Below, piece by piece: positions 1 to 46,330 of a stretch of DNA of 64,000 nt. The translations under genes were made by a program, and so were the position numbers. Numbering within the stretch: the stretch's first letter is position 1; each line of letters starts with the position of its first letter. Source of the DNA: Escherichia phage PBM-2; the sequence record PV029541; one strand, given 5' to 3'. The notes beneath the pieces were generated by a model. The model did not search any database. It had not been told where the DNA came from and worked only from the letters and a program-made list of their open reading frames with translations.

Positions 1-143
1 GTGGCTGGGGCTACACCCTTACACTCAACCATCCCCCCCGGTATGTTGACGGTGTAGCCACTACCCTACCCCACCTTACACGTTACACATGCTCCGCATG
101 TTATGGACATGTCGTCCTATCATCAACTATTGGAGCTATCATC

Positions 144-422
144 ATGACTACTACCGCTACTGTACGTATGACCGCAGGAACTTTACTTGGTACTGTTAAC
201 TCAGCTGCTACTACTGTTGCAGATACATTTGGTACAGCAACTAAAGCAGTAGGTATGCTTAATTCATATGTAAGTACTATGGCAGAGAAACAAGCCATCC
301 GTACTAAATTAGAAATGCATACCTTTGTTAATAAACTGGCAGAGGAGACAGCTATGACTGAGACTCTGCGTAAGAAAAGTATTGAAGAATTCTGTAAGGA
401 TAAAGAAAACGGGTTCCGCTAA
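144..422 (+). CDS. hypothetical early protein (92 aa)
   Basis: ORF track; co-oriented with downstream early genes; ATG about 40 nt after a 6-bp-stem hairpin at about 87-101; no recognisable motif. Confidence 0.35.
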   Translation: MTTTATVRMTAGTLLGTVNSAATTVADTFGTATKAVGMLNSYVSTMAEKQAIRTKLEMHTFVNKLAEETAMTETLRKKSIEEFCKDKENGFR

Positions 423-664
423 GGGTTATCCTGATGGGGATTCCATCTTGTGGAAACTTAACGAGAAAGAAATTGATGACATGATAGCCTTGCTTAAAGC
501 TATCAAACAGCACCGACCTAATAACAGTTAAAACCAAGACGCTCCGCGTCTTATGGATGATTTAAATGCATCCACTAATCATTGAAATCTTAAGTCTTTT
601 CTTGGGTTTAGTCACCGACGGACAAACCCATAAATCAAACAATCATTTATCTGGAGAGTACAAA

Positions 665-1048
665 ATGTCTATTCAAAAATTCACTTTCGGTCAATCTAAC
701 ACTGCTGCTACTTCTACTGCTAAAGCTGATAAGCCTAAAGCTCAGTTCTGGCTGAACATTGGTTATGTAGCTAATGAAGGCTCTGATGATGAGAAATTCA
801 TCTCATTGCCTACTGGTATTCCTTTGGATACTCAGGAGCCGCTGCCTACTAATAGCAGCAATGCTGACTTCCGTGCTATGCGTTGTGCACAGAACGACCT
901 GTTGGAACAGTTAATTGAATATGCTCAGAACCTGGAACCAGGTGAAGAAGGTATCATTAACCTGCAAGTTCAACTTCGTCGTGTGAAAGCAGAGGCTGCT
1001 GACATCCCAGCAGACGAGAATAAATATGCTCGTAAACTGACTTTCTAA
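665..1048 (+). CDS. hypothetical early protein (127 aa; start moved to internal ATG)
   Basis: Track ORF 566..1048; internal ATG at 665 is preceded by GGAGAG RBS; followed directly by a strong intrinsic terminator. Confidence 0.45.
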
Positions 1049-1056
1049 TCAACCAC

Positions 1057-1086
1057 TAGACTCCCTTCGGGGAGTCTTTTATTTTT
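1057..1086 (+). terminator. rho-independent terminator (approx. coords)
   Basis: 8-bp GC-rich stem tagactccc/gggagtct with TTCG loop followed by T-run. Confidence 0.6.
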
Positions 1087-1191
1087 AACTAGACGATAAT
1101 CTATTTCTACTTTTTGAGTATCTTTAGACGAAGGGTACTGAAACAGTAACCAGATAGATATAGATTTATATTAGATGAAGGAGTAACCATT

Positions 1192-1377
1192 ATGCGTACA
1201 GTATGTAACCGTTATAACTCACAAAAGTTGATTGTTATGTTACAACCTTGGGGTAGTAAGATGTCTCTTAATGCTCGTTGGCAGGTATCTGTAGAAGATA
1301 AGAATGGTCAGCATTATGACCACTTCTTTGTAGCTAAACCTACTCGTAAACAAATCCGTAAACTTCATAAGGTGTAA
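1192..1377 (+). CDS. hypothetical small protein (61 aa)
   Basis: ORF track; AGGAG-like RBS (gaaggag) upstream of ATG. Confidence 0.35.
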   Translation: MRTVCNRYNSQKLIVMLQPWGSKMSLNARWQVSVEDKNGQHYDHFFVAKPTRKQIRKLHKV

Positions 1378-1381
1378 GACT

Positions 1382-1600
1382 ATGTTGGACTTCATTGCGT
1401 TTGTAATACTCTGTTATGTGCTGTATCGCCTACGTGGTTACATTCTCAATGGAGCCAAGTGGGTAAGAACTAAGCTGGTACTTATTTGTAAGTTACCAGT
1501 TGTATTCGTTAAGTGTCTGTTTGCTTCCATCATAGCTAAAGAGGTACGTAAGCAACTCTGGGCTAAAGAAGCAGAAGAGTTTGCAAAGAGGAACCAGTGA
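1382..1600 (+). CDS. small putative membrane protein (72 aa)
   Basis: ORF track; hydrophobic N-terminal segment FIAFVILCYVLY; tight spacing to upstream gene. Confidence 0.35.
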   Translation: MLDFIAFVILCYVLYRLRGYILNGAKWVRTKLVLICKLPVVFVKCLFASIIAKEVRKQLWAKEAEEFAKRNQ

Positions 1601-1897
1601 TATTCACTAACATTGAGGATGCCATTGAAGAATGTATCTTTCGTAGATATCACACTGGTGTACAGAAACGACACTATGGTGTTGTACAACTCAATGGCTA
1701 TCAAATGGTTGTAAGAATTGTACGTAACAACAACAAGCCTTTTAACTTTATGTGGAGTACCAAACATGCGTAAGTCATTAATCATGGGAACCAAAGCTGA
1801 CGTACAGAAGATGAAGGAACGTCTGGCTGCTAAGCAACAGACATCTGAACCAGTACGTAAGATTGTTACTTACAATCATCCATGTATCAAATAGTAA

Positions 1898-1935
1898 GGA
1901 GTCCTCCAATAGGAGGCTCCTATTTTTTATTTTTG
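1898..1935 (+). terminator. rho-independent terminator (approx. coords)
   Basis: ggagtcctcc/ggaggctcc stem with AATA loop followed by tattttttatttt. Confidence 0.55.
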
Positions 1936-1971
1936 AATAGTTAGATATGTATTTAAATAGGAGAAATAATC

Positions 1972-2286
1972 TTGAATGAAATAGTATGTATACTTCCTCA
2001 CCAAGCTAAAGTAGCTGACAGGAATATACGGGTACATTTACCATTCCCATTAAGTAATCCATTTGCTCGTAATGAAAGAACCACAGTAGAAGATATAGAG
2101 GTAGCTTATGAAGCTTACCTTCGTAATCGTCTTATTAATGGTGACAAGTTAATTACAGCAGAGATGGAAAGGATTGCTGGCTTTGTAACTGATAGTACAG
2201 GTAAACCTGTTGGTTTAATTGGTACTGAATCTGATGTTAACGTTATTCGTAAAATACTGATGGAGGCACTCGGTGAACAATCTTAG
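1972..2286 (+). CDS. hypothetical protein (104 aa, TTG start in track)
   Basis: ORF track; AGGAG 9 nt upstream of TTG; no motif recognised. Confidence 0.35.
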   Translation: MNEIVCILPHQAKVADRNIRVHLPFPLSNPFARNERTTVEDIEVAYEAYLRNRLINGDKLITAEMERIAGFVTDSTGKPVGLIGTESDVNVIRKILMEALGEQS

Positions 2287-2518
2287 TGATGTCATCGTAG
2301 ATAAAACAATATTAGTAAATCCCAAAGGGTATGCCTGGTTCATGCTAAAGCATACCCGTAAGGTATATGTTAGAAAGGTATATATACGTAACTTTGGTAA
2401 GTTATCTTACAGAGAAGTACGTATTAATAATGAGATGTACTTTCTAGATGAATCAGTGATTATCAAATCAACTGAAGACAGAAAGGCTCCTTACTTTAAC
2501 TATTACGGATTCAACTAA
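2273..2518 (+). CDS. hypothetical protein (81 aa)
   Basis: ORF track; overlaps upstream stop (coupled arrangement). Confidence 0.3.
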   Translation: MNNLSDVIVDKTILVNPKGYAWFMLKHTRKVYVRKVYIRNFGKLSYREVRINNEMYFLDESVIIKSTEDRKAPYFNYYGFN

Positions 2519-2519
2519 A

Positions 2520-2741
2520 ATGATGTACTCAACTGATTATGGTGTTTGCCCTGTATGTAACAAACGTAAAGGAGTTGCTAATCATAAGCGTTGTAGTCGT
2601 ATATTACAGAAACAACGGAACCAGAAAGAATGGGATAAGCTGTTGGAAAACCAGCGTAAAGAAGAAAATCAACAGATGGCTGTTAAGGCATCTACTCAAC
2701 GTATTCGCCGTATTAACTATATACAGGGGTATCAGAAATGA
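2520..2741 (+). CDS. hypothetical basic protein with CxxC pair (73 aa)
   Basis: ORF track; CPVCNKRKG...KRCSR, possible zinc ribbon; very basic. Confidence 0.35.
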   Translation: MMYSTDYGVCPVCNKRKGVANHKRCSRILQKQRNQKEWDKLLENQRKEENQQMAVKASTQRIRRINYIQGYQK

Positions 2742-3094
2742 GACTAATCGTAGCTGGTGGAAGAGACTTCGTAAATACCAATCTTATGATTGAGGAATTA
2801 CAGAAGTTAGTAAATTCAGGGAATATACCTGAATGTCCGGAATTAGTATGTGGTATGGCTCGTGGAGCAGATATGCTTGCATATAGTCTATGGGCTAATA
2901 ACAAAATGCCTATTCATAATTTCCCAGCAAACTGGGATAAACATGGTAAATGTGCTGGTTATAAACGTAACCTGGAAATGGGTGAATTTGCAGATGCTGC
3001 TGTATGTTTCTGGGATGGTAATTCCAAAGGAACCAAGCACATGATTGATATCATGTATAGGCTTAATAAACCCGTATACGTTGTGAGGTACTAA
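2738..3094 (+). CDS. SLOG-type Rossmann-like protein (DUF2493-like), putative nucleotide-binding
   Basis: N-terminus MRLIVAGGRDF and GMARGADMLA glycine-rich motif resemble my recollection of DUF2493/SLOG-family phage proteins. Confidence 0.45.
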   Translation: MRLIVAGGRDFVNTNLMIEELQKLVNSGNIPECPELVCGMARGADMLAYSLWANNKMPIHNFPANWDKHGKCAGYKRNLEMGEFADAAVCFWDGNSKGTKHMIDIMYRLNKPVYVVRY

Positions 3095-3349
3095 ATGATT
3101 ATTACATATCCTACAGGCAAGACTGTGGAATATATGAAGCACACCATTCAAGTACCTCACTGGGTTAAGTATATAGCTTTATTACCACGTCAATATAAAA
3201 GTGCTAATACCTCATTAATAGGATTCTCTAAGAAGCCTAAGCTAACAGAAAACAATATCTGGGTATCCTCTGGGAGACAAGAAGAAATTGGTTTTTGTGA
3301 TTTGAGTATTGTCGATAATAACATCTATGGGACATTGAGAAAGGTATGA
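3095..3349 (+). CDS. hypothetical protein (84 aa)
   Basis: ORF track; abuts neighbours with no gap. Confidence 0.3.
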   Translation: MIITYPTGKTVEYMKHTIQVPHWVKYIALLPRQYKSANTSLIGFSKKPKLTENNIWVSSGRQEEIGFCDLSIVDNNIYGTLRKV

Positions 3350-3660
3350 AAACTATTCTAGTAGTTCATGATTCTACATTTACAGATGTAGATAAAATGA
3401 TGCGTAATATTGATTATGTATCTCAAACAAGCCAGGCATTCAATGAAGAATTTACCCTCTACTGCAATGCTGAATCTCCACTGGTTCCTATCCTTAAAGA
3501 ATCAGGTCTACCATTCTCTACAGAGAACTTCCCGGAAGAACCAGACTATGTAATCTCATTCATTTATGACTTACATGATGGTTCTGAAACTAGTGAACTA
3601 GCTATGAACCAGTGGCGTAGTAAACGTCCTGTGTTCGCATTCCAGGTACTTAAGCCATGA
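3346..3660 (+). CDS. hypothetical protein (104 aa)
   Basis: ORF track; 4-nt overlap with upstream gene. Confidence 0.35.
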   Translation: MKTILVVHDSTFTDVDKMMRNIDYVSQTSQAFNEEFTLYCNAESPLVPILKESGLPFSTENFPEEPDYVISFIYDLHDGSETSELAMNQWRSKRPVFAFQVLKP

Positions 3661-3899
3661 TTTATGAAGAATATTATGTATTCAAAAAGGGGGATGATTT
3701 TATAGCTATGCCGGATGATTATATAGATTGGCATACAACTCCCGTATTAAATGAAGCATTTTCTGTACCTAACCTAGAAGAGGTTAATAAAGTAATGAAC
3801 GGGGTAATGTTAACAAGAGGGTTAGCTTACAAAATAGACGCATTAGAAGGAACTACTGTATGTAAAGTAAGTACATCTATTGAGGCATTAAAACCATGA
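3657..3899 (+). CDS. hypothetical protein (80 aa)
   Basis: ORF track; 4-nt overlap with both neighbours. Confidence 0.3.
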   Translation: MIYEEYYVFKKGDDFIAMPDDYIDWHTTPVLNEAFSVPNLEEVNKVMNGVMLTRGLAYKIDALEGTTVCKVSTSIEALKP

Positions 3900-4276
3900 A
3901 GACTATTACATTAGGGGACGACACCAATGCTTTGCTGGGTGTAGCTGCACGTCCAATTATCATTGTTAATAAACATCACGGTAAATCCGGTGAGTATATC
4001 GGACGTGGTTCACCATTAGGAAATCCATTCGTTATTGGTAAAGACGGTTCAAGAGAACAGGTTATAGCCAAATATCGAGTATGGCTTAATGAACAAATCA
4101 TGAGGAAGAATCAAGCTGTATTGGATGAACTTAATCGTCTTGGTAATAAAGCCATTGATGAGAAAGGGTTGGCCTTACAGTGCTTCTGTTATCCGAAACC
4201 ATGTCATGGTGAGGTTATTAAAGAGAAGCTAGTAAAAGCTATGTATAACTACTTTGTGGAGAATCCAAAGGGGTAA
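3896..4276 (+). CDS. DUF4326-like protein
   Basis: Motifs YIGRGSPLGNPF and CFCYPKPCHGEV resemble the DUF4326 family as I recall it; function unknown. Confidence 0.4.
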   Translation: MKTITLGDDTNALLGVAARPIIIVNKHHGKSGEYIGRGSPLGNPFVIGKDGSREQVIAKYRVWLNEQIMRKNQAVLDELNRLGNKAIDEKGLALQCFCYPKPCHGEVIKEKLVKAMYNYFVENPKG

Positions 4277-4279
4277 CTA

Positions 4280-4630
4280 ATGAAAGAAATATTCGTATTC
4301 ACTACCAATACACTAGGACAACATACCAATGCTTCTGCCAAGTTAGCTTATAAGAAGCATGGTGCTCGTTGGGGTATGGCCTATGGTCATTATGGTAATA
4401 GCTTTGCTATTCCAGTAAGAGATGGCAATGGTAACCGTATCAAAGAGGGTGCTATCTATGGCTTCATTGAGGGCTTTATTGCTTATGCATCTGCCAATCC
4501 ACAATGGGATTTCAAAGTCATGAGTAATGACTACCTGGACCCATACCAGTTCATTAATGTAACCGGAAATGTACTGTTACCCGAAGCATGGCGTAAACAC
4601 TTAGGCGATGCTTACAACTACTGGAGTTAA
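4280..4630 (+). CDS. hypothetical protein (116 aa), glycine-rich Rossmann-like N-terminus
   Basis: ORF track; IFVFTTNTLGQHTNASAKLA...GARWGMAYGHYGNSFAIP; family not identified. Confidence 0.35.
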   Translation: MKEIFVFTTNTLGQHTNASAKLAYKKHGARWGMAYGHYGNSFAIPVRDGNGNRIKEGAIYGFIEGFIAYASANPQWDFKVMSNDYLDPYQFINVTGNVLLPEAWRKHLGDAYNYWS

Positions 4631-4632
4631 TA

Positions 4633-4893
4633 ATGACTTATGAAGAACTGTGGACTGCTCAAGTCAGAGCCAGAGCACTTACACGGCATGATATCTATTG
4701 TGCATTACAAAACGAACTAAAGGATCGTACTAAACTAGGTCACATATCTGGTTTAATTAAAATACCTATGCGTAGTCTGGTATGGCCTTACCAGAAGAAA
4801 AATAACGAGTTTAGTGGTAATGGTTTATATGTACGTATTGACTACCTTGGTCAAGAGAACAGTATTCGTATTACCTTTTGGACTAAACGTTAG
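4633..4893 (+). CDS. hypothetical protein (86 aa)
   Basis: ORF track; followed by a hairpin plus T-run. Confidence 0.3.
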   Translation: MTYEELWTAQVRARALTRHDIYCALQNELKDRTKLGHISGLIKIPMRSLVWPYQKKNNEFSGNGLYVRIDYLGQENSIRITFWTKR

Positions 4894-4946
4894 GTAATAG
4901 CTGCTCCGCAGCTTTTGGTTATTAATCACATTTAGGAGAATAAGCG

Positions 4947-5765: not shown

Positions 5766-5997
5766 GTTAAAACTATGGCTCATTAGCCAGGAAGAGAATA
5801 CAGGATGGGATACATACGATTCCGCAGTGGTAGCTACTACAACTAAGGAAGAAGCTCGCCTTATTAATCCAGACGGAGAATGGAATCTATCTTCCGCTTG
5901 GTGTTCTTCCCCAGATAAAGTGCACGTCGAGTACCTGGGTATTGCCACAGAAGGTGTGGAACCAGGAATAGTATTGTCATCATTTAATGCTGGCTAA
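5758..5997 (+). CDS. hypothetical protein (79 aa)
   Basis: ORF track; lies between the two RNAP subunit genes. Confidence 0.3.
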   Translation: MSRLKLWLISQEENTGWDTYDSAVVATTTKEEARLINPDGEWNLSSAWCSSPDKVHVEYLGIATEGVEPGIVLSSFNAG

Positions 5998-6054
5998 TCC
6001 ATCCAATAAGCAGGCTCTTCATAGTGAGGAGCCAAGAAGCAAAAGGAACATAAA

Positions 6055-7272
6055 ATGCAACTGTTAACCGCTCGTGAATACCTGAAAGTAGATATTGCCA
6101 ATAACTATGGTCTGGATAAAAAGACCTGGGATGAGCGTATTGCTTGGTTCGATGAGAATGAAGCTAACTTGCTTAATCTGGTAGATGAAGCTGAGGAATC
6201 TGCACTGTTCTATGCTGGTGTAAACGCATGGAAAGATATGAAAGCTGGTAAGCCTATCGGATATGCCGTAGCCCTGGATGCTACATCATCAGGCTTGCAG
6301 TTACTGGCCTGCCTGACTGGTGACCGCTCTGCTGCTGAACTGTGTAACGTAGTTAATTACATGGGAGAGAATGGTAAGCCATTACGACGTGATGCTTATA
6401 CAGTTATATATCACAAGATGCTGGACATCCTTGGTGAAGCATCCCGTATTAAACGCAGTGATACCAAGCAGGCAGTTATGACTGCATTCTACGGTTCAGA
6501 AGCCAAACCTAAAGAAGTATTCGGGGAAGGTATCCGTCTCAAGACTTTTGAAAATGTAATGGAAACAGTTGCAAGTGGTCCTTGGGCACTTAACAAGTTC
6601 TTACTGCAATGTGGTAACCCGGATGCTAACCGTTACATATGGGTACTCCCTGACAACTTCCATGCTGTCATTAAAGTCATGGTTCTTGAAGTACAGACTG
6701 TTAACTTCTTGGGTAAACCATTTGACATCACTCGTATGGTTCAGGGTACTGAAGAGAAGACCCGTATGCTCTCTGCTAACATCACTCACTCTATTGATGG
6801 GATGGTAGTACGTGAGATGCTGCGTCGTTGTAACTTCGACCCTAAACTGGTTGCCTATGTACGGGAACTGTGCGATATCGGGCCAAGTGAATACCCCGTT
6901 ATTGAGGGGAACCAAGAGAAGACTATGGAAATCTGGAATCATTATGAAAGGTCAGGATTCCTGTCGCTGTCTATCCTAGACTTCCTTGACCCGAATACTA
7001 TTGCATTGGTAGACCGTCAAGTAGTAGCAGATATGATCGACACTATGCCTAAGAAACCATTCCCTGTAATGACTGTACATGATTGCTTCCGTTGCCACCC
7101 TAACTATGGTAATGACCTGCGTCGTCAGTACAATCAGATTCTGTCTGACATTGCTAAGAGTGACTTACTGGGCTTCATTCTGTCTCAAGTACTGGGGCAA
7201 GAGTTCTCTGCTGGTAAGCTGGATGACAGCCTCTGGCAGGACATTCTTGAAACGGATTATGCATTAAGTTAA
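6055..7272 (+). CDS. T7-like single-subunit RNA polymerase, catalytic subunit (N4 RNAPII large subunit-like)
   Basis: DATSSGLQLLA (cf. T7 RNAP DGSCSGIQHFSA) and C-terminal VHDCF (cf. T7 motif C HDSFG); 405 aa, too short for a full T7 RNAP, so a split enzyme. Confidence 0.75.
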   Translation: MQLLTAREYLKVDIANNYGLDKKTWDERIAWFDENEANLLNLVDEAEESALFYAGVNAWKDMKAGKPIGYAVALDATSSGLQLLACLTGDRSAAELCNVVNYMGENGKPLRRDAYTVIYHKMLDILGEASRIKRSDTKQAVMTAFYGSEAKPKEVFGEGIRLKTFENVMETVASGPWALNKFLLQCGNPDANRYIWVLPDNFHAVIKVMVLEVQTVNFLGKPFDITRMVQGTEEKTRMLSANITHSIDGMVVREMLRRCNFDPKLVAYVRELCDIGPSEYPVIEGNQEKTMEIWNHYERSGFLSLSILDFLDPNTIALVDRQVVADMIDTMPKKPFPVMTVHDCFRCHPNYGNDLRRQYNQILSDIAKSDLLGFILSQVLGQEFSAGKLDDSLWQDILETDYALS

Positions 7273-7279
7273 TAAACTA

Positions 7280-7312
7280 GCCTCATTCCTTCGGGAGTGA
7301 GGCCTATTTTTT
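7280..7312 (+). terminator. rho-independent terminator (approx. coords)
   Basis: 10-bp stem gcctcattcc/ggagtgaggc, TTCG loop, T-run. Confidence 0.6.
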
Positions 7313-7329
7313 GCTTGGAGGTAACAACT

Positions 7330-7512
7330 ATGCTAATCCCCTTTGAAGTAATCTTTCAGTTAATACTGATAGTTTTATCTGTACTGGTTCTGTCTACGAT
7401 AGTTAGTGCTCATAAGTCTAAGTTTGCATATTACTACTATGGAGCATACTCACTTGGCTGCTTTGTAATGGCAGGATGGATAGCTTTTGCTATCTACTGT
7501 GTAAACAACTAA
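7330..7512 (+). CDS. small membrane protein, two predicted TM helices (60 aa)
   Basis: Track ORF 7297..7512; internal ATG at 7330 has GGAGG RBS; two hydrophobic stretches. Confidence 0.35.
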   Translation: MLIPFEVIFQLILIVLSVLVLSTIVSAHKSKFAYYYYGAYSLGCFVMAGWIAFAIYCVNN

Positions 7513-7540
7513 CCCTCTTAACGGAGGGTTTATTTTTTTA
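7511..7540 (+). terminator. rho-independent terminator (approx. coords)
   Basis: aaccctc/gagggtt stem followed by tattttttta. Confidence 0.6.
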
Positions 7541-7586
7541 CATGTCATGTATACTAATCCTGCTATTTACTTATGAGGAAATTCAT

Positions 7587-35940: not shown

Positions 35941-35975
35941 AAATTAAAGCCCCTCTAATGAGGGGCTTTTTCATT
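35941..35975. terminator. bidirectional intrinsic terminator between convergent genes (approx. coords)
   Basis: 8-bp stem aaagcccct/aggggcttt flanked by an A-run on one side and a T-run on the other; lies between a plus-strand gene end and the vRNAP stop. Confidence 0.55.
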
Positions 35976-38900
35976 TAGTTAGCTAGATTGAGCCAAGGGT
36001 TAAGGTTATGGGCACGAAGTCCCTGACCGAAGCCCCAGGAGTAACCGAGATTGCCTTGTGCAGCAATACTGAAGATGTTGTCCTGAATAGGTAAACCAAC
36101 ATTACCAAACATGGTAGGAGTTGGAGCCAACATAGCCATAGCTGCGTGTACCGGGTTGTTACGAATCATGGATACTGCAATTTTTGCAGAACGAATCTTA
36201 AAATTATAGAACCACATAAGACCAACACTTTCCATATACCCACGGAAGCGACCAGGCAGACGGTCATAGTTAATGAACTCTTCCGTTACACGTCCAAGTG
36301 CTTCTTCACGAGTCTTACCTTTACGCTGAGTCAAATCATCATAGATGATTGCTTTAGCAATAAAGTCAGAGTACTCAACCGTCTTCTGGATACCCTGGAA
36401 TAAAGCAGTATCCTTGGTGATAAGGGCATAACGTCCAGCATTACGTACAGACTTAGGTAACTTATCAGCCAGTTTATCCATGTATTCGTGAAGTTTACCT
36501 TCAGTAATCAGGATGTCATCTCGTCCAATACCAGCATCTGCAATTGAAGAAAACTCACCAGCTTCTAACAGAGGCCAGATACTCATACGCTTATGACTAT
36601 CAGTGATGGACTGAATTTCAGCCTTAAGCTTACGAATCTGGTTCGGGTTAGTAGCTGCACGTAATTCTGCTTCTGCATCTACCTGACGCAGACGAGATTT
36701 CAGGTACTGGTTAATCTCAGCAGTCTTCTGTGGAATGCTCTTAGCAATGTTCTTAACAGGTACACCACGACCAACCATCTGGTAAAGGTTAGCCAGGAAG
36801 TTAACAGCAGGAACAACTACTGATTTAACTACAATCAGAGTCTTAGCTTCTTTAACTAAGTTTTGAACCAGGTTCTCACCACCCATTACATACTTATAAG
36901 CACGGTTGCCGAATACACCCAACATAGCTTTCTTGAAGGTATCCAGTGTTTCTGGTGACCAACGAGAATTGCCAGACCAGGCATCACCTACGGAAGCTGC
37001 ACGATAGCCCAGTGCATCATTCAGCATGTCACGACGTACCCACAACTCACCAGGACCAAACAGACTTTCTGCTTTCTGACGAGTTTCACTGTTCATCAGC
37101 TTAAGGGCATCAGCAGTTACTGGGTCCAGTTTAGAACCAAGAAGGTTAACGTACTGTGACTTGTTAGAGGCAGACATTTTAATGTCGTTTTCATACATGC
37201 TATGCAGGTTCTCAATCAGCATATCGTTAAAACGCTGAGCCTTAGCTTCCTCTACCTGACGACCACGCCATACACCGATTGCACGAGCGAGATGGTTCTC
37301 ACCCTCAATGTGCTTCAGCATGTTAGGGTCAATAGATTGCTCATAAGCAACCACATTGCCTTTATCATCATATACAGGCAGCAGTGGTTCATTACCACGT
37401 TCACCGCGAGCCAGTGCTTTAGTGATACGGTCTACAGAAGGCTTGTCAGTGATACGACCAGCTACCATTGTACCCATCGTAAAGCCTGTACCAAGGTCTA
37501 CACCACCAGCAGTATTGCGAACGTTCTGTAAGATACCTTGCGAGAATGGAGCCTGTGCCTGTACCGGTGCAAAGTAGTAGCTACGTGCTGGACCACGATT
37601 AGCAGAGCTACCCTGATAAGTACCCAGACGTACATAGGACTTCTCAATCAAATCAGCAAACTGACTATCTTCAGCAACAATCAAGTTAACACCCTGTTTA
37701 GTCTCACCAGGAATATACCCTTTGTACTGGTTCAGAGTTGCACGAGTATCAGATTTGGCTTTAGCCATTTCATCTTTACGCTGACCAACCAGATAAGAAG
37801 TAGCGAAGTCCATGCCTTCAATCTCTGTCTGAGCCAGTGAAGATAACATCTCACGGTCAGTCTTACTCATTGCTTCCAGTGCATACAGAGTAATCAGTTT
37901 ATCCAGTTGAGCTACATCTACAGTAGAACGTGCAGCCTGTCGTTCACCCAGCATACGAGAGATTGCAGTAGCATTACGCAGCAAGTTATTACCAACTGTG
38001 CCATTAATCATGTACTGAGCCAGTTGCTTAGATTTACGGCTAATCAAAGGCCAGTTACGTCCTGCTTGTTTCTGCAAATCTGCTTCCAGCTTATTCACTT
38101 CACGGTCAACAATCTTTTGGTCAGTCAGCAAGTCACGAATTTCACCCAGAGACATAGTGTCACGCAGAACAGCTAAGTCGGTTTTACCCATACCGGTATG
38201 CATTGCTTTCCACTCATCATTAGTAAGCTTACGGCTGAACTTAGATGCAATAGTGGTAGGCAAATGTTCACGGAACTGCTGACGGTCAGCCTGTACCTGT
38301 GCACGCACTGCTTTAATCAAATCATATACAGAAGCATTGCTCTTAGTACGACCAGTTAAGTCATTAACCAGGTCATGGAAAGGTTGCCATACCTTACCCT
38401 GGTTCATTGCAGCCATAACACCCTCAGCTACGATTGCACCATTTTTCTCTGTAGCAATAGCAGCTATTAGTTGTGCAGCATGAGCAGCACCTTTAACCAA
38501 CGGGTTCTTGGTATTAGCTGCAACTTCACGAGCACCCTCTAAAGCACGGGTAGACAGTACATCAATAGAATCCACCAGATACTGGTTAGCACGGTCGATA
38601 GCATTACCACTAGGAGTAGCAATGGAATCATAGAAGGACTGCGCATTGAGACTCGTCTGCATGATTGTCTGAGCCAGTGCATCCATACCTTCCTGTACGT
38701 TGGTAGCTTTAGTATCTCCTGCTACACGAGCATTCAGACTAGCCATTGCAGCAGTACCGATGTTAGTCAGCATTGCATCAGCGGTATTGCCAGATTTCTT
38801 GTCTACTTTCATAACAGGAATGTCAGCCAGTACTTTACGCACTTCTTCACTTACCATTGCCAGACCAACAAAGGTAGGCAGTAAGGAAGAACGGCCTTGT

Positions 38901-41900
38901 GCATCAAACTCAATGTTGTTAGCACCCATGATGGTATCGAACTTCTGCTGTGCATAGTAACGGTCAGCAGGGTTAGTACTATCTGGGTCAGCCATGAATG
39001 ACTCAACGGTCAGGTTCTTAGTAACATGTGTGTAGTATTCCTGTGCACGAGCCAGAGCAGCAGGATTAATAGCAGCTTCAGTAGCCAGTGCAGCAACAAT
39101 GTTAGTAAAGAGACGTTGTTCCTGCATATTCATAGTGAAGCCATGAGCCTGAACATCACGAGTTACTTTAGTCGCATTAACCACTGCATCAGAGAACTTA
39201 CCTTTACGAATTACTTGCTGTACTGGTTCAGAACCAATGTAGTCAGTAATCAGTTTATCGAAGGTTTTCCCTAGCTCTTCCAGACGAGTATTGTCACCAT
39301 ACGTTTTGTTATGGAACAGAGTAGTATCTTTGGCTACAGCAGCAGTAGGAGCTTGCCCACGCATAACTACGGACGAGTTAAACAGTAAGCCAGAGAACAT
39401 ATCATCTGCATTAGCTGGTGCTTTCTTACGCCCAAATACCAGACGCTTGATTGCTTCATATACAGCCTGAACCATAGTCTTCAGTGCAGTGGTTTTCTTC
39501 TGCTTACTAATCAGTTCACGGTTAGTTAAACCCCATGCCATGTACTCATTCAGTGCAGCAGCTTTAGCCATTGCTGGCTCAATGAAGCCATTAGATAGAT
39601 GACCGTTAATAGTATTAAGAGCATCTGCATATGCTTCCCGAACTGCCGGGGATTCATCCTTAACATCCAGAGCACGGAACTGGTTCATCAGGTCTTCAAT
39701 GTTCTGGACCGCTTCATTAGGAGTACCCTCATAGTGAGCCAGTACAGATTCAAAAGTAGAAGCATGCACCAATTCATGAACCAGAGTCTCTAAGGAAGGG
39801 GTAACTAAGTAGATGGTCTTATCTTCAAAGTTAGTCCAACCATACGCATTACCAGCTTCAGCAGCTTCAATATCTTCTGGTGCTGGGCGAGTAATATTCT
39901 TCTCAATAGCATAAGCATCCAGTTGGGAAGGTGTACCGTAAACAACCTTATAATCTTTAGCAGCAAGGGATTTCTGTACTTCTTTCAGTACTGCTTGCTG
40001 TTCCGGAGACATCTCTTTAGCCAGCTTAGAGATAGCAGTATTAGACAGTAGGCGTACACCAGACTTCAGTACACGACCAACCTGTTCCATTGCTGGCACT
40101 TCTTTCACTGGTTCTACTTTAGCAGCACGTACTGCATCACGACGTTTGTTTAATTCAGCATCGAACAGTTCATTTAGCTTAGCTACTTGTTGGTCTACGG
40201 TCAGACCTTCCAGAGAGATTTTACCGTTGTTCACATAAGGAGCACCAACAGCAGCCATCTGGTCAACAGTAGTCTGTACCTGGTTCATTACTTTGTGACG
40301 AATATCTACACCCAGAGCAATATTACGCAGGTTACGTTCAATCTGTTCAGCACCAACACGTAACAGGTCATCGGTAGCACCTTCACGCTGGTCATATTCC
40401 AGAGCAGATTTAGCGATAGCCTGTTTGGTTTCATCAGATAGTTTGCTGAAGTCTACGTTCTTCATGAACTTAGTAAAAGACTCATAAACATTCTTGATAG
40501 GGTTACCCTGCCAGGAAGTGTATACAGCCTCGTTAGCTTTACGACTTGCATCAGTGATGTTGTCGATACCAATGTTCATACCATCAAAGATTTTCAGGGT
40601 ATTCTTCGGAGCACCTTTCATAGTAGAAAGGGTCTGCATCATCATGCCATCACCAGTGCCAATGGTCATAAATGGAATACCTGCAACGCCTGCCTGAGAA
40701 GGAGCATAGATGCTCATTGGCACACGCATACGGTCATCTAAGTTGGTAGCCAGTACCTGGTTAGCAACATCAGTATTCTCACTACCAGCAATATAGAAAG
40801 TCTGTGAACCAGTCTCAATCATTGGAGCCAGTGGAGACAATGATTCCTGAATTTCATTCAGTTCTTTCTGTGTTAAGAAATCACCCTTCTTCCAGGTTGG
40901 GTCTTTTTCTTTTTCTGCCAGCTTAGCCTGTACTGCTTGTTGGAACATGTCTTGTAGAACCAAAGACTGAATCTGGGTAGCCTTCTGCAAGTTCTCAGTA
41001 GAATGCATCAGACCTTCCCCAACAGTATTCCGGATACCAGTACGCATTGGTTCAACGAACAGGTGAAGCATGTTCTCTTGTAAGTTCTTCAGGGCATTAC
41101 CCGATACGGTAAACTTCTGAGGGTCTAACTTACCAGTCAGAGCACCTTCTACCTGTTGAATAGACAATTCACCTTTACGCATAACTGGAACATTACCAGT
41201 CAGTGCTTCCATAGAAGTAAGGAAAGTATCCAGCATAGCCTGAGCATCAGCCTCAGACGCAGCCTCCTTACCAAACATTGCCATAGCTGGGGAAATACTA
41301 GGGTCAGCAGCACGAGCTTGCAGAACATCACTGAAGCGTTCATAGATGGTATCAGTAATTGCACTAACCATCTTGCCAGCAATACCACGAGCACCTGAAC
41401 CATAGATGGTAATGGTCAGTGGGTTTTTAGCGATACCACGTTTTAGGTCCAGAGTACCGTCTTCATTCAGGTTAAAGTCTTTAATAAACAGGTCCATTAA
41501 CTTCTGAAGATGATTCATTTGGTTCATAACCGGAACGTTGTTACGGTAAGTAGTACGTAACTCATTAAGTGCTTGTTGCAGACCATTGGTAGATGCTTCA
41601 TACAGGTCAACACTGTCATCCTGTGAACGATGCTCATTCATAGTCTTACCAGCTTTACCGAAGAACAGACCACCTTTAGCAGTATTCTTAATCCAGTCTG
41701 AAGTGAACTTACCACCTGTCATTAATATCATTGCGTTGATTGGTCCGTTGGTTACACCATCGGCTTCAACGTACAGTGGGGTATTAAAGTTGGCACGGTC
41801 ATCACTGTTCAGGTAACGGGCATATTCCATAAGAGCCATGAGAGCTACGAATGATTTATCGCCACCCAAAGAAGTCTTCAGAATATCTACTGCATCAGCT

Positions 41901-44900
41901 GGTAAGTGGCCAGACTTATCAAACTCAACCATCATATCAACAGCAGGTTTCAGATTACCTTCCAGAGCTTTGGTCAGCTTTTCAGACATAGCTTCACGGG
42001 ACATATTATGTACCTTGATACCCAATGCCTGAGCCAGTCCTAGCTGGAAGTCAGAGAATGTTTGGCTGTTTTCATTACTCAAGTCAATAGTAGAGAAGGT
42101 TGGCAGAATTGCTTCACGAACCAGTTTACTGGATTGTGGGTTGTTCTTACCTAACATCTGCATACGACCTACACGGGTCATGTTGTAACCATAGTGAATA
42201 GGCGTATCCAGACCATTCTCCTGTTCCTGTAACTGGTTGATTACACCGAACAGGGAATCATATGCCATAGACACTGACAGGTTTTTACCCTCCAGTGACT
42301 TAGCAGTGTTCACGTTCAGCAGTTCAGGATTAAGAGTACCAGCACCCATCAGTTCCAGAATGTTGTCACGACCTAATGCTTCATAGAAGTTAACCATCGG
42401 CATGTGTACACGGAACTCGGTAGCCTGTTCTGCTTTAAGAGCAGCTTTCTGCTCTGGGGTATTCTTAACAGCAGGGTTACGTAACTGAGTTTGAGCCACG
42501 GAAGGAATATCATCACCAAAGTACATTTTCTCTTCTGGTTCTACGAGAACAGCTTCCTCGATAGCAGTAGGGAACTTGTTAATGGCATCGTTATCATCCA
42601 GCTTCTCAATGGTATACAGACCGACGGTCTTATTAGAGTCTGGGTCAATCTCAGACACATCAAGCATAGACTCTTTAACTTCACCCATCTCAATGAGAGA
42701 AGACAGAATCTCTGTAGCCATTGCCATTGGAATACCTTTGGTATAACCCAGTGGTGCATTAGGATTACGATTCAATCCCCAGTAAGATTCAATCTTTTGA
42801 GCCAGTGAGTTAGTAGCTTCAACCAGAGTCTGAGCATTCTCAAATTCAGCCAGGATACCTTCAGGTAACAAGGATGCTTCTACTCCAGTAATAGCAGCTA
42901 CATCTTTCATGTCTTTAACAGCAGCATTCTGTGTAGCAGTCAGTCGCCATTGCAGACCAGCAAGTACAGCAGTCTCTAACAACTGGTCATTGAACTTAAA
43001 GGTGTCTCCGTCTTTCTCTACGATATTAAGTAACTTACCACCTACCCAACGGTTAGCCTCTGTGCCTTCTGCAAAGCGTTTACCAACGTTCTTATTAGCA
43101 AGAAACTTAGCCAGACGATCAGACAGAGTAGTCTTCAGAGTTTCACCAAAGCCCATTAAGTCCTGATAACGCTTAATCACATCACTTGTGAGAGCGTTAT
43201 TTTCTTTTTGAGTGAATGCTTCAAAGCGTGCAGTAGAAGACAGTGCTTGCTTAATATCAGTCAAAGGGGATTCAGAACCAATGGTGCGAGACTTAGGTTC
43301 TTCCGGCAGGGTAAATGATTTCAGGAACTGGTTCGGTGTCTTGTCATTGTTATAGACAGGGAAAACTGTTTCCATTTCCGTTTTAGTTTCAGCTACTTTT
43401 TGAGTGGTATCCTCATTGGTGAGGGTAGCATCTACTGTTTCAGACTTAGTAGTAGAGACTTCTTCTGCTTTTGAACTAGCCTCTTTAACAGGAACAGTCT
43501 TATTTTCTACCACTGGTTTAGCTTTAGGCTGTACAGTAGTAGTAGTAGTCTCTTGCGCTGGTGCAGGAGTTTCATCAACCTGATTCACTGGTTCATTGGT
43601 CTGTTGAGACTGAGTGGCATCAAGACCACCTTGACGGAACTCTTTAACTACCTGGGCAGCAGGCTTGTCCAGACGTGAATCTAATGGAGTAACCTTCACA
43701 TGAGAAACATTAAGCTCCGGGTAAGCCGTAGCAAGTGCGTTAGCAATATCAGCTACGGTTTTGGCCTCCAGTCCTACTTGCTGGGCAAACTTAACCGACT
43801 TGGTATCATACGGATTGACACCAAGACCAGTACGACTACGTACCCATTCACGGGAGGGAGTAAGAGCCTGATAATGGACAGACTTATTCTTATCCGCATT
43901 CCCAGAAATCAGATGCTCATTCAACGCTCCGACCTTATTCTGCATGTGCTGGGCGAACTTCATAAAGTCGTCGAGGTAAGCGGAAGCCAAATCGAAGTTA
44001 CCAGAGTTGTACGCAGAACGAATGCGTTTAGCATGTTGCAACGCAGAGTACTGACCTTCATTAGAACGAGACTCGTCGGTTTTAATCTGTTTACTAACAA
44101 TGTCTTGAGGACGTAAGCCTAGTTCTTCTGCTTTAGCGTCAAATTCTCGTGCTCCTTGCAATAGAGCAGCAGCAGATTGCAGGGCAGCACGCTGACGATT
44201 CCCCAGTGTAATCTTACCTTCACTTGCATGTTTCAGAACCATGTTCACTGAGTCTGCATCCAGTACTTCTGGAGACATATCAGCAGCCATAGCAATGTTG
44301 TTTGCTTGGGCTTGGTTAGCTTCTTCGGTAGCTTTCAGTTTACCTGCTTCAGCCTGTTCCTGAATCATAGAATGGATGGCACGGAATGCACGAAGTACCT
44401 TTGGTGTATTCTGAACGTTAGCCATCAGGCCGGAGAACTGGTCAACAATATTAGCAGCAGGAGAACCCTGTTCCAGATTAGCTAAAGCACCAGGATCACG
44501 GTTAATGAAGCTATCCATAGACATGATGTTGTCATACATCTGGATTGCAGCTTCCATTTGAACGTTAGGGTCTTCAGTAGTATTAACCAGGTCTGCCATC
44601 TTCTGAATAGCTTCCACACGGTTAGTGGAACCAGAAACAGCTTCACGGATTGTAGGACTAGCTTGCTCCAGTTCTACTGGGTCAAACTTCATTGCCTGAG
44701 TTAAGTCAGCAGCATACTGAGTAGCAGCAGCTTTCTCTTCAGGAGAAATGTCCATTGCATCTACTGCTTCCTGTACAGTTGCTTGTGCTTGTTCTGCTTG
44801 AGCAGTAGCTTCTTGTGCAGCAGCATTAACCGTAGCATCTGATACAGGGGATGCTTGCTCATTACGCTTAGCAACTTCTTCGCCACGCTGAACCAGGATG

Positions 44901-46330
44901 TTAGTAATAGGAGAGGCAGCTTTTGCTAATGCACTACCAACCAGAGAAGCACCAGCCAGAGTAGTACGTAAAGCAGGCCCAGCAGAAGCACCAACAGCTT
45001 TAACAGTTGTACCTGGAGCCTGAGCAACACCAGCACTACCGAAGCCGTAGAGTGCACCAAGACCTGCTTGCTCACCGACACCTTTAAGCAAATCACGCTT
45101 AGCATCTACATTACCCTGAATTGCCTTGTTCTGTGCAAACTGACTTGTACCAGACTGAATACCTTCTTCTACTGTTTCACGTAGCATGTTAGAACCAGCA
45201 CCAGCCAGCGAACCTACCTTAAGTGGGTTAAGTTCAAATTTGGATACCAGAGGACCAGTAGCAGCAGCAACCGGAGCAGTTAAGCCAGCAGCAATGATAC
45301 CCGTTTCAGATGCAGTTTGGCGACGTGCTTCATCAGGAGATAAACCATCAGCGATATGCTGTTGATAAACAGGAGACTTACTTGCCAATTCTTGATGGGA
45401 CATCTTCATGATTTCGGAAGCAGTCTGTTGGTATGCACCACCAGCTTCCATACCACCAATTGCAATAGCAGGTGCAGCAACACGACCAGCAGACAATGCA
45501 ACCTGTGCAGGACGTGAACCTAACTCAGCAGCTAAGGTAATACCCTTAACAGCTTTATCACCACCTACCATTACTTTACCGAGTGCAGATACACCACGAA
45601 TTAATGGACCACCGGTAAAGAGAGAACCAACACCTTCACTCAGCCCATCAGTAGCAGCCATACCATTATCAAGCGTATTAGCAACAGAATCAAAAGCATC
45701 ACGACCAATACGAGACAGAGAGGCAACCAAACTGCTCTCTCCATTTTTAATGTCTTCTTCGTAGAGTTTCTGGTTCTTTTGTGCAGAAATCTGGTTCTGA
45801 TTCTGAACAACCTTACGGGTAGCATTCAGTGCGTCAGACTGTAGATTGTGTACCCCTTCATTCAGCCAATCCATCCCGGAAGCAATGGATGCCCCGGCAT
45901 TATCATTGACCAAACCCGTACCAAGAGCAGCAATGCCCCCAAGGGTATTAGCAACACCAAGACCAACACCAGAAAGAGTATCACCAAATGCTTCTGCGTT
46001 AGTACGTTGCTTAGATAAGTCCTGACGTACAACATCAGCAGCATTAGCTCGGCTATTAAGAATCTGTAGACCTTGCTCATTACCGTATTTATTAAGAATT
46101 TCTAATGGGGAGGCTTGAGTGAAATCTGCCTGAAGTGAACCTGGTTCGAATGCACCGATTCCAAGATTACCTACACGACCAGTTTGGAGATTGTAAGCAT
46201 TCTCTGGGGTTAATTGGAAAGGGCTTTGCCCTTGTGCAGCTTGCTTCTGAGAGGTTGCAGTAGAGACATCGACTTGCTTAGCATTAGTGATGCTGTCTGC
46301 GAAACCTGCCAGACGGTCAAATGTTGACAT
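35975..46330 (-). CDS. virion-encapsidated RNA polymerase (N4 gp50-like giant vRNAP)
   Basis: About 3450-aa ORF; central region has YVEADGVTNGP (motif A-like Asp) and KIFDGMNIGIDN (motif C-like Asp) as in N4 mini-vRNAP as I recall it; track start is TTG at 46348, ATG at 46330 has AGGAA RBS. Confidence 0.85.
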   Translation of the reverse strand: MSTFDRLAGFADSITNAKQVDVSTATSQKQAAQGQSPFQLTPENAYNLQTGRVGNLGIGAFEPGSLQADFTQASPLEILNKYGNEQGLQILNSRANAADVVRQDLSKQRTNAEAFGDTLSGVGLGVANTLGGIAALGTGLVNDNAGASIASGMDWLNEGVHNLQSDALNATRKVVQNQNQISAQKNQKLYEEDIKNGESSLVASLSRIGRDAFDSVANTLDNGMAATDGLSEGVGSLFTGGPLIRGVSALGKVMVGGDKAVKGITLAAELGSRPAQVALSAGRVAAPAIAIGGMEAGGAYQQTASEIMKMSHQELASKSPVYQQHIADGLSPDEARRQTASETGIIAAGLTAPVAAATGPLVSKFELNPLKVGSLAGAGSNMLRETVEEGIQSGTSQFAQNKAIQGNVDAKRDLLKGVGEQAGLGALYGFGSAGVAQAPGTTVKAVGASAGPALRTTLAGASLVGSALAKAASPITNILVQRGEEVAKRNEQASPVSDATVNAAAQEATAQAEQAQATVQEAVDAMDISPEEKAAATQYAADLTQAMKFDPVELEQASPTIREAVSGSTNRVEAIQKMADLVNTTEDPNVQMEAAIQMYDNIMSMDSFINRDPGALANLEQGSPAANIVDQFSGLMANVQNTPKVLRAFRAIHSMIQEQAEAGKLKATEEANQAQANNIAMAADMSPEVLDADSVNMVLKHASEGKITLGNRQRAALQSAAALLQGAREFDAKAEELGLRPQDIVSKQIKTDESRSNEGQYSALQHAKRIRSAYNSGNFDLASAYLDDFMKFAQHMQNKVGALNEHLISGNADKNKSVHYQALTPSREWVRSRTGLGVNPYDTKSVKFAQQVGLEAKTVADIANALATAYPELNVSHVKVTPLDSRLDKPAAQVVKEFRQGGLDATQSQQTNEPVNQVDETPAPAQETTTTTVQPKAKPVVENKTVPVKEASSKAEEVSTTKSETVDATLTNEDTTQKVAETKTEMETVFPVYNNDKTPNQFLKSFTLPEEPKSRTIGSESPLTDIKQALSSTARFEAFTQKENNALTSDVIKRYQDLMGFGETLKTTLSDRLAKFLANKNVGKRFAEGTEANRWVGGKLLNIVEKDGDTFKFNDQLLETAVLAGLQWRLTATQNAAVKDMKDVAAITGVEASLLPEGILAEFENAQTLVEATNSLAQKIESYWGLNRNPNAPLGYTKGIPMAMATEILSSLIEMGEVKESMLDVSEIDPDSNKTVGLYTIEKLDDNDAINKFPTAIEEAVLVEPEEKMYFGDDIPSVAQTQLRNPAVKNTPEQKAALKAEQATEFRVHMPMVNFYEALGRDNILELMGAGTLNPELLNVNTAKSLEGKNLSVSMAYDSLFGVINQLQEQENGLDTPIHYGYNMTRVGRMQMLGKNNPQSSKLVREAILPTFSTIDLSNENSQTFSDFQLGLAQALGIKVHNMSREAMSEKLTKALEGNLKPAVDMMVEFDKSGHLPADAVDILKTSLGGDKSFVALMALMEYARYLNSDDRANFNTPLYVEADGVTNGPINAMILMTGGKFTSDWIKNTAKGGLFFGKAGKTMNEHRSQDDSVDLYEASTNGLQQALNELRTTYRNNVPVMNQMNHLQKLMDLFIKDFNLNEDGTLDLKRGIAKNPLTITIYGSGARGIAGKMVSAITDTIYERFSDVLQARAADPSISPAMAMFGKEAASEADAQAMLDTFLTSMEALTGNVPVMRKGELSIQQVEGALTGKLDPQKFTVSGNALKNLQENMLHLFVEPMRTGIRNTVGEGLMHSTENLQKATQIQSLVLQDMFQQAVQAKLAEKEKDPTWKKGDFLTQKELNEIQESLSPLAPMIETGSQTFYIAGSENTDVANQVLATNLDDRMRVPMSIYAPSQAGVAGIPFMTIGTGDGMMMQTLSTMKGAPKNTLKIFDGMNIGIDNITDASRKANEAVYTSWQGNPIKNVYESFTKFMKNVDFSKLSDETKQAIAKSALEYDQREGATDDLLRVGAEQIERNLRNIALGVDIRHKVMNQVQTTVDQMAAVGAPYVNNGKISLEGLTVDQQVAKLNELFDAELNKRRDAVRAAKVEPVKEVPAMEQVGRVLKSGVRLLSNTAISKLAKEMSPEQQAVLKEVQKSLAAKDYKVVYGTPSQLDAYAIEKNITRPAPEDIEAAEAGNAYGWTNFEDKTIYLVTPSLETLVHELVHASTFESVLAHYEGTPNEAVQNIEDLMNQFRALDVKDESPAVREAYADALNTINGHLSNGFIEPAMAKAAALNEYMAWGLTNRELISKQKKTTALKTMVQAVYEAIKRLVFGRKKAPANADDMFSGLLFNSSVVMRGQAPTAAVAKDTTLFHNKTYGDNTRLEELGKTFDKLITDYIGSEPVQQVIRKGKFSDAVVNATKVTRDVQAHGFTMNMQEQRLFTNIVAALATEAAINPAALARAQEYYTHVTKNLTVESFMADPDSTNPADRYYAQQKFDTIMGANNIEFDAQGRSSLLPTFVGLAMVSEEVRKVLADIPVMKVDKKSGNTADAMLTNIGTAAMASLNARVAGDTKATNVQEGMDALAQTIMQTSLNAQSFYDSIATPSGNAIDRANQYLVDSIDVLSTRALEGAREVAANTKNPLVKGAAHAAQLIAAIATEKNGAIVAEGVMAAMNQGKVWQPFHDLVNDLTGRTKSNASVYDLIKAVRAQVQADRQQFREHLPTTIASKFSRKLTNDEWKAMHTGMGKTDLAVLRDTMSLGEIRDLLTDQKIVDREVNKLEADLQKQAGRNWPLISRKSKQLAQYMINGTVGNNLLRNATAISRMLGERQAARSTVDVAQLDKLITLYALEAMSKTDREMLSSLAQTEIEGMDFATSYLVGQRKDEMAKAKSDTRATLNQYKGYIPGETKQGVNLIVAEDSQFADLIEKSYVRLGTYQGSSANRGPARSYYFAPVQAQAPFSQGILQNVRNTAGGVDLGTGFTMGTMVAGRITDKPSVDRITKALARGERGNEPLLPVYDDKGNVVAYEQSIDPNMLKHIEGENHLARAIGVWRGRQVEEAKAQRFNDMLIENLHSMYENDIKMSASNKSQYVNLLGSKLDPVTADALKLMNSETRQKAESLFGPGELWVRRDMLNDALGYRAASVGDAWSGNSRWSPETLDTFKKAMLGVFGNRAYKYVMGGENLVQNLVKEAKTLIVVKSVVVPAVNFLANLYQMVGRGVPVKNIAKSIPQKTAEINQYLKSRLRQVDAEAELRAATNPNQIRKLKAEIQSITDSHKRMSIWPLLEAGEFSSIADAGIGRDDILITEGKLHEYMDKLADKLPKSVRNAGRYALITKDTALFQGIQKTVEYSDFIAKAIIYDDLTQRKGKTREEALGRVTEEFINYDRLPGRFRGYMESVGLMWFYNFKIRSAKIAVSMIRNNPVHAAMAMLAPTPTMFGNVGLPIQDNIFSIAAQGNLGYSWGFGQGLRAHNLNPWLNLAN

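Follow-up and report, generated by a model that had tools for sequence, protein, structure and literature searches.

Candidate hairpin promoters for a virion RNA polymerase in the early region of the N4-like Escherichia phage PBM-2

Background

In a 64,000-nucleotide (nt) stretch of Escherichia phage PBM-2 (sequence record PV029541), the whole of which is termed the window below, small hairpins with 3-nt loops immediately precede early genes. The question is whether these hairpins are promoters of the kind used by phage N4, whose virion RNA polymerase (vRNAP) enters the cell with the DNA. Our analysis indicates, with a probability of about 0.9, that the hairpins at 87-101, 536-552 and 4899-4913 are early vRNAP promoters and are the orthologues of N4 promoters P1, P2 and P3. 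They are called P1, P2 and P3 here as well. The assignment as orthologous promoters is made because the sites share the sequence criteria of N4 promoters and their synteny, because their stems change in a compensatory manner, and because the phage encodes a cognate vRNAP with conserved contact residues.

The early promoters P1, P2 and P3 of N4 are vRNAP hairpin promoters (Haynes and Rothman-Denes 1985; Glucksmann et al. 1992, as cited in PMC4496689). They are conserved from -17 to +1 and contain a GC-rich heptamer centered at -11, with inverted repeats on both sides (PMC4496689). The polymerase recognizes -11A/G, -10G, -8G and +1C of the template strand, and hairpin extrusion needs a C:G loop-closing pair and a loop with a 3' A and a 5' G (PMC4496689). 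Transcription starts 8 nt downstream of -8, the single-stranded spacer serving as a ruler without base contacts, and the template base at -1 is a purine (PMC4496689). Structures of the N4 promoter are available (3C2P and 3C3L), and vRNAP binds the N4 core as DNA in crystal and cryo-electron microscopy (cryo-EM) structures.

Three hairpins with a common core

The original prediction described two hairpins, at 87-101 and 4899-4913, with 6-base-pair (bp) stems, 3-nt loops, a common 9-nt core and a template-strand loop GGA. Their coordinates and sequences prove exact, and the common 9-mer is TGCTCCGCA. The genome-wide search for the core that it proposed recovers both sites and shows the set to have been incomplete, because a third hairpin, P2, had been overlooked (Table 1). 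All three hairpins lie on the plus strand in the first 5 kb, immediately 5' of homologues of N4 gp1, gp2 and gp15. The gene contexts given for P1 and P3, namely the first open reading frame (ORF) and the RNAPII subunit genes, are likewise borne out by homology of the first ORF to gp1 and of the ORF at 4947 to gp15.

The functional P1 hairpin is predicted to form on the template (minus) strand, as ACATGC-GGA-GCATGT. At all three sites, the template-strand core is 5'-GC-GGA-GC-3', with the loop GGA, a purine at -11 and a C:G loop-closing pair. The template bases are -12A, -11G, -10G, -9C and -8G in each case, followed by A at -1 and CC at +1/+2. On the opposite strand, a GG (G105/G106, G555/G556 and G4917/G4918) is located exactly 11 and 12 nt past the loop center, and -1 is T. 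The spacer from -4 to -1 is TTAT at P1 and P2, which thus have no T-run, and TTTT at P3. Every sequence feature listed for N4 promoters in PMC4496689 is present at all three window sites. The predicted P1 leader extends 39 nt to gp1 and includes a Shine-Dalgarno (SD)-like TGGAG, whereas the predicted P3 leader extends 30 nt to the RNAPII gene and includes AGGAGA. The predicted P2 leader is only 11 nt from the gp2 ATG, compared with 10 nt in N4 by the same prediction.

The template-strand DNA folds of P1, P2 and P3 have calculated energies of -4.7, -6.9 and -5.7 kcal/mol, and those of N4 P1-P3 range from -3.7 to -7.3 kcal/mol; these values come from standard DNA folding parameters, which leave out the bonus for a sheared G:A pair. 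The minus strand reads GCGGAGC at all three sites and so matches the GCGNAGC class of DNA mini-hairpins (Hirao; PMC13037366). These have a melting temperature of about 73 °C for N = G, and the authors link the class to the N4 promoter. The window cores share with the class two G-C pairs and a sheared G:A pair. Because of this mini-hairpin core, the short template hairpins would be expected to be stable and resistant to single-stranded DNA-binding protein (SSB). GCGNAGC is a structural class rather than a functional family, however; the window version has 3-5 further base pairs and is predicted to be read by a polymerase.

The bare heptamer GCTCCGC occurs three times in the window, compared with an expected 2.4, and is therefore not over-represented. 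Because this count is not significant, the promoter argument rests on hairpin, spacing and position. All three copies in the 64 kb are on the plus strand, and each forms the middle of a stem of 5 bp or more and has GG at the fixed spacing. Hairpins centered on GCTCCGC number three, against a mean of 0.023 per dinucleotide shuffle, and no single shuffle of the 300 produced more than 1. The combination of core, hairpin, spacing and position is far beyond chance.

Hairpins in general are also more frequent than expected. The window contains 41 hairpins with 6-bp stems and 3-nt loops, compared with 17.7 ± 4.4 in shuffles. Counted across the entire window, perfect hairpins whose stems reach 6 bp or more are ~2.3-2.5 times as numerous as in dinucleotide shuffles when the loop is 3, 4, 6 or 8 nt, and no enrichment is found for loops of 0 or 5 nt. 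We considered the excess of 3-nt-loop hairpins as a sign of additional promoters and rejected it, since the excess is not specific to 3-nt loops and the core is absent from the other 38 hairpins. The excess is explained in part by terminators and by nested counting. A relaxed scan of both strands of the window (loop C-TNC-G, stem of at least 4 bp) revealed no further site with -8C and GG at +1/+2. When relaxed criteria were applied to the 9 kb of Escherichia phage PBM-3 that lie past the window, the sole extra match was the terminal-repeat copy of P1.

Correspondence with the N4 early promoters

The N4 genome (EF056009) also has three sites, and these are syntenic with those of the window, preceding gp1, gp2 and gp15 (Table 1). 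Identification of the N4 promoters was anchored on the P2 oligonucleotide in PMC13492108 and on the review PMC4496689; in reverse complement, N4 557-573 matches the P2 hairpin of the 2026 vRNAP cryo-EM oligonucleotide, ...CCAAAAGAAGCGGAGCTTC... (PMC13492108). Stems are 5-7 bp and loops are 3 nt in both phages, and the start G is 8 nt past -8 in both. The window's template core GC-GGA-GC is that of N4 P2 and P3, whereas N4 P1 has GAA where window P1 has GGA. The P3 hairpin and spacer of the window match N4 4546-4562 almost base for base. The outer stems of the other two promoters differ by compensatory changes: ACATGC/GCATGT in the window versus GTTGC/GCAAC in N4 for P1, and AGACGC versus AGAAGC for P2. 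The P1 and P2 spacers are TTAT and TTAT in the window and TTAT and TTTT in N4. The N4 promoters have been studied experimentally, whereas those of the window are predicted from sequence.

Hairpin promoters have been proposed for other N4-like phages. For Klebsiella phage KP8, putative promoters P1-P4 were predicted by similarity to N4 (PMC6950046, Table 1). KP8 and the window share the GCTCCGC core and a downstream T(A/T)TGG, and the KP8 P2 22-mer AAGACGCTCCGCGTCTTATGGA is identical to window positions 536-557. KP8 differs in having four sites rather than three, the extra one preceding an added gene, and its sites too are only predicted. Early hairpin promoters are also reported for the Pseudomonas N4-like phages LUZ7 and LIT1 (PMC3715699), and those of LUZ7 were confirmed when its transcription start sites were mapped by ONT-cappable-seq (PMC9163698). 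These resemble the window sites in their early location, 3-nt loop, stem of at least 4 bp, G start at a fixed distance and dependence on an injected vRNAP. However, the two phages belong to another subfamily, with nine mapped early starts versus three predicted here, different stem and loop sequences, and a start 13-14 nt from the hairpin center instead of 11. Such promoters have previously been predicted in Pectobacterium CB1 as well.

Covariation in related phages

Absence of the motif from related phages had been named as an observation that would speak against promoter function. The motif was looked for and is present in N4 and relatives. Two scans of IMG/VR, with gp2 and an RNAPII subunit as queries, yielded 55 loci. 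These loci, N4 and the window were searched for the pattern GCT(C/T)CGC with a stem of at least 4 bp, which produced 45 distinct 30-mers. The core GC-T(C/T)C-GC, including -9 and -8, is invariant in the 45 sites by selection, as it is the search pattern.

The pairs -15/-7, -16/-6 and -17/-5 each occur as all four Watson-Crick types, with no mismatch and no G-T pair in the 45 sites (135 cells). Of these, -17/-5 lies outside the selection criterion. In register, the covariation score is 0.504. Column shuffling gives 0.132 ± 0.021, and none of 500 shuffles attains the observed value; offsetting the partners by 1-3 columns gives no more than 0.109. Farther out, -18/-4 is paired in only 34 of the 45 sites and -19/-3 in only 20, which matches the 5-7 bp stems of N4. 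Of the 45 sites, 44 retain the GG at +1/+2. When the stem requirement is dropped, the gene-sense strand has 68 GCTYCGC copies, of which 65 form stems of 5 bp or more; the GG accompanies 64 of these 65 and none of the 21 copies on the opposite strand.

An alignment of the regions upstream of the RNAPII gene exhibits the same pattern. The preceding coding sequence is fully diverged, and the hairpin, spacer, GGTWATTAA and SD sequence are retained. Stem variants in this alignment include CTGC/GCAG, GTGC/GCAC and CAGC/GCTG. The sequence comparisons indicate that the stem is kept by compensatory change around a fixed core.

More distant relatives, in which gp2 is 40-53% identical, retain this layout: a GC-rich stem of 5 bp encloses a loop of 3 nt, TAC or TGC, and the spacing to GG is unchanged (Table 1). 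The center of the template loop in these sites (GTA or GCA) is T or C, in contrast to the purine required by N4 vRNAP. These pyrimidine loop centers suggest that the -11 pocket of vRNAP may have been retuned in particular lineages. Two viral-contig scans with the vRNAP recognition segment, aimed at co-variation of the -11 pocket with the loop base, reached only phages with TCC or TTC loops.

Close relatives differ in how many hairpin promoters they have and in where these lie. A fourth promoter occurs in some, 270-440 nt 5' of gp2, and in others the P3-type hairpin lies 270-290 nt 5' of the RNAPII gene, a gap wide enough for a small gene to have been inserted (Table 1). Hairpin promoters may travel with gene cassettes.

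A cognate virion RNA polymerase

The window encodes a vRNAP that matches the N4 vRNAP structures over its full length and is the predicted reader of the three hairpins. The protein has 3,451 amino acids and shares 67% overall identity with N4 gp50, a value that rises to 71% within the mini-vRNAP domain. Contact residues were placed by adding 997 to the mini-vRNAP numbering, which reproduced the named residue at every N4 position. The readers of -10 and -11 (K114, R119 and W129) are identical to those of N4, as are D901 and R904, which read -9/-10 and -8. K268, K437, R440, E557, K849 and K850 are also identical. K114, R119 and W129 are invariant in an alignment of five sequences that extends down to 54% identity, and all of those phages have TCC or TTC loops.

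The vRNAP ORF as listed starts at a TTG at 46348 and has 3,457 codons, of which about 973-2076 correspond to the mini domain. The alignment with N4 gp50 begins six codons later, at the ATG at 46330 (MSTFDRLAGF...), which is likely to be the true start.

Alternative explanations

The proposal that the two hairpins first noticed are candidate N4-type vRNAP promoters is upheld by their sequence features, synteny with N4 P1 and P3, conserved compensatory stems and the encoded polymerase. Several considerations weigh against the promoter assignment. The related loci are not independent of one another, and the covariation counts, being counts of cells, exaggerate how many independent events took place. 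Selection for a stem of at least 4 bp, moreover, partly enforces two of the three covarying pairs. The vRNAP residue K267, which makes a melting contact at the stem base, is N in this phage and is the sole changed contact residue. The RNA form of the P3 hairpin with its UUUU passes a permissive terminator scan (6 pairs, 4 GC, tail TTTGGTTATT). Finally, no transcript 5'-end, vRNAP-binding or extrusion data for this phage or any Gamaleyavirus were found in the searchable literature.

The terminator scan bears on an explanation that concerns P3. In RNA that reads through from P1 or P2, AGCUGC-UCC-GCAGCU followed by UUUU could act as an intrinsic terminator or attenuator, alone or in addition to a promoter, and would stop or dampen transcription past the ORF that ends at 4893, thereby insulating the RNAPII operon. 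The location of the hairpin 6 nt past a stop codon and an RNA fold of -11 kcal/mol, when flanking pairs are counted, are in keeping with such a function. Like an intrinsic terminator, P3 combines a GC-containing stem-loop with four T residues; it differs in its short stem, 3-nt loop and a T-run that is ended by a conserved GG. It is also the weakest plus-strand terminator candidate, with a z-score of -1.95 and only four T residues before the GG, whereas clear terminators in the region have stems of 8-10 bp, tetra- or pentaloops, 5-7 T residues and z-scores of -4 to -4.6. The T-run is not conserved, since relatives have TTGT, TTTC, TTTA or TTAA at -4 to -1 with the GG fixed. Moreover, TTTT at these positions is the spacer of both N4 P2, a proven promoter, and N4 P3, and window P1 and P2 have the same core with TTAT in place of a T-run. 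The stable GC-rich stem, run of typically at least 5-6 U residues and conservation that characterize intrinsic terminators are not found at 4899-4913. A terminator at this position is accordingly unlikely, and the T-run, which the original prediction had offered as a sign of termination, is by these comparisons the promoter's own -4 to -1 spacer. The chances are similarly slim that P3 is bifunctional, serving as a DNA promoter for the RNAPII genes and as a partial terminator of P1/P2 read-through RNA. If this were true, a single element of 19 nt would end the early unit 5' of it and begin the following one.

Two further explanations apply to all three sites. The hairpins could act in early mRNA, as processing sites, stabilizing stem-loops or protein-binding sites, rather than as DNA promoters. 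They are intergenic inverted repeats on the transcribed strand, and any read-through RNA would carry them. However, P1 lies 87 nt from the end of the genome, and nothing 5' of it could transcribe it. The covarying pairs are Watson-Crick only, with no G-U among the 135 cells, as expected if the template DNA strand must pair too. The conserved GG at a fixed distance and the strict strand asymmetry fit a start site, and the identical N4 core is bound as DNA by vRNAP in structures. A function in RNA is thus very improbable. Lower still is the probability that the inverted repeats arose by chance and share their 9-mer by coincidence. Although perfect 6-bp/3-nt hairpins are common in the window and the bare heptamer occurs at chance level, hairpins with the core far exceed the shuffled expectation, and core, spacing and positions recur in N4 and in dozens of related contigs; coincidence is a negligible prospect.

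Predicted early transcription

With the hairpins taken as vRNAP promoters, events after infection can be outlined by analogy with N4. The left genome end would enter the cell first, and supercoiling driven by gyrase would extrude the inverted repeats as small cruciforms. Host SSB would then melt the non-template hairpin and spare the unusually stable hairpin of the template strand. Injected vRNAP would recognize two loop bases, -11G and -10G, together with -9C/-8G of the stem, and binding of the template hairpin would unlock its active site. The polymerase would use the single-stranded spacer to count 8 nt from -8 and place GTP opposite the template C at +1/+2. On the basis of position, the transcripts are predicted to begin at G105, G555 and G4917. 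Their products, gp1, gp2 and the two RNAPII subunits, would then take over middle transcription.

The analysis thus provides exact predictions for early starts and a map of three early operons for a Gamaleyavirus; a public Gamaleyavirus record that we inspected has annotated terminators and no promoters. Strong terminator-like hairpins follow both gp2 and the second RNAPII subunit gene, so the RNAPII genes would need a promoter of their own. The P3 unit is likely to end at the hairpin at 7280-7303. The promoter rule for vRNAP holds in dozens of N4 relatives: the GC-GGA-GC mini-hairpin is extended by an outer stem that varies but stays paired, and the start lies 8 nt past -8. The same rule can serve as a simple annotation pattern. 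Prediction of hairpin promoters in N4-like genomes is already routine, and the understanding of N4-type transcription is unchanged by these results.

Early gene map and additional observations

The first 6 kb of the window are 100% identical to PBM-3 (Gamaleyavirus) and 86-99% identical to many G7C-like phages. Because several records of G7C-like phages (Schitoviridae, Enquatrovirinae, Gamaleyavirus) start at the window's first base, the window is the left 64 kb of a G7C-like N4-like coliphage genome with a total length of roughly 73 kb. Homologues of gp1, gp2, gp15 and gp16 stand in N4 order (Table 1).

Table 1. Positions of hairpins, genes and terminator-like elements in the window, in N4 and in related contigs
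Sequence	Feature	Position	Strand	Details
Window	P1-type hairpin promoter (predicted), ACATGC-TCC-GCATGT	87..101	+	6-bp perfect stem, 3-nt loop; loop center (-11) 94; predicted start G105
Window	Predicted +1/+2 (GG) of P1 transcript	105..106	+	8 nt past -8, as N4 P2 (PMC4496689; oligonucleotide in PMC13492108)
Window	gp1 homologue, first early gene 3' of P1	144..422	+	74% identity to N4 gp1
Window	P2-type hairpin promoter (predicted), AAGACGC-TCC-GCGTCTT	536..552	+	7-bp perfect stem, 3-nt loop; loop center 544; predicted start G555
Window	gp2 homologue (RNAPII cofactor in N4), 3' of P2	566..1048	+	69% identity to N4 contig copy L013
Window	Strong terminator-like hairpin after gp2	1058..1077	+	8-bp stem, TTCG loop, T-rich tail; -14.1 kcal/mol, z -4.0
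Window	Further strong terminator-like hairpins	1903-1924, 7511-7530, 8471-8493	+	Terminator scan
Window	P3-type hairpin promoter (predicted), AGCTGC-TCC-GCAGCT	4899..4913	+	6-bp perfect stem, 3-nt loop; loop center 4906; predicted start G4917
Window	N4 gp15 homologue (RNAPII subunit; "RNAP1" in N4 record), 3' of P3	4947..5765	+	67% identity
Window	N4 gp16 homologue ("RNAP2" in N4 record)	6055..7272	+	68% identity
Window	Strong terminator-like hairpin after second RNAPII subunit gene	7280..7303	+	-18.3 kcal/mol, z -4.5
Window	vRNAP gene, predicted reader of the three hairpins	35975..46330	-	Full-length match to N4 vRNAP structures
N4 (EF056009)	GTTGC-TTC-GCAAC TTATGGA	90-102		Before gp1
N4 (EF056009)	AAGAAGC-TCC-GCTTCTT TTGG	557-573		Before gp2
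N4 (EF056009)	AAGCTGC-TCC-GCAGCTT TTGG	4546-4562		Before gp15
Related contigs	Sites with TAC or TGC loops	L021:1448-1460, L023:1448-1460, L024:350-362 and 1438-1450, L025:95-107 (IMGVR_UViG_3300027776_000002), L030:1361-1373 (3300040771_000124)		
Related contigs	Sites of variable placement	L006:1219-1233, L008:147-161, L009:1211-1223, L011:962-978, L015:1043-1059; L040:894-908, L043:920-934, L044:917-931, L049:907-923		

Matches to sigma-70-like promoters are depleted in positions 1-9000 (12 versus 25.1 ± 5.5 expected), which fits early genes that are independent of the host polymerase. Terminator-like hairpins are enriched in the same region (19 versus 4.9 ± 2.1 expected). Those folded, at 1058-1077, 1903-1924, 7280-7303 and 8471-8493, have z-scores of -3.7 to -4.6.

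Positions 1-402 of the window are repeated exactly at the right end of PBM-3, which indicates a direct terminal repeat 402 bp or more in length. The N4 terminal repeat is reported as 390-440 bp, which is similar in size. P1 is hence present twice per genome, and its right-hand copy faces the genome end. The PBM-3 record has 172 additional bases ahead of the window's first base.

The 5' end of the predicted P1 transcript can be drawn as a small stem, GGAC-AUGUC-GUCC (window 105-117), with the N4 counterpart GGACAUGUUGUCC (L001 107-119). We rejected this RNA stem as a feature: it is found in this phage and N4, but its fold is no better than that of shuffles. The sequence ACATGT at +3 to +8 is kept across P1 sites. 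Directly 5' of P1 is a C-rich tract, CTACCCTACCCCACCTTACAC (window 61-84), which is non-coding, close to the genome end and kept in N4 and several relatives. The tract could relate to the genome end, packaging, injection or hairpin extrusion.

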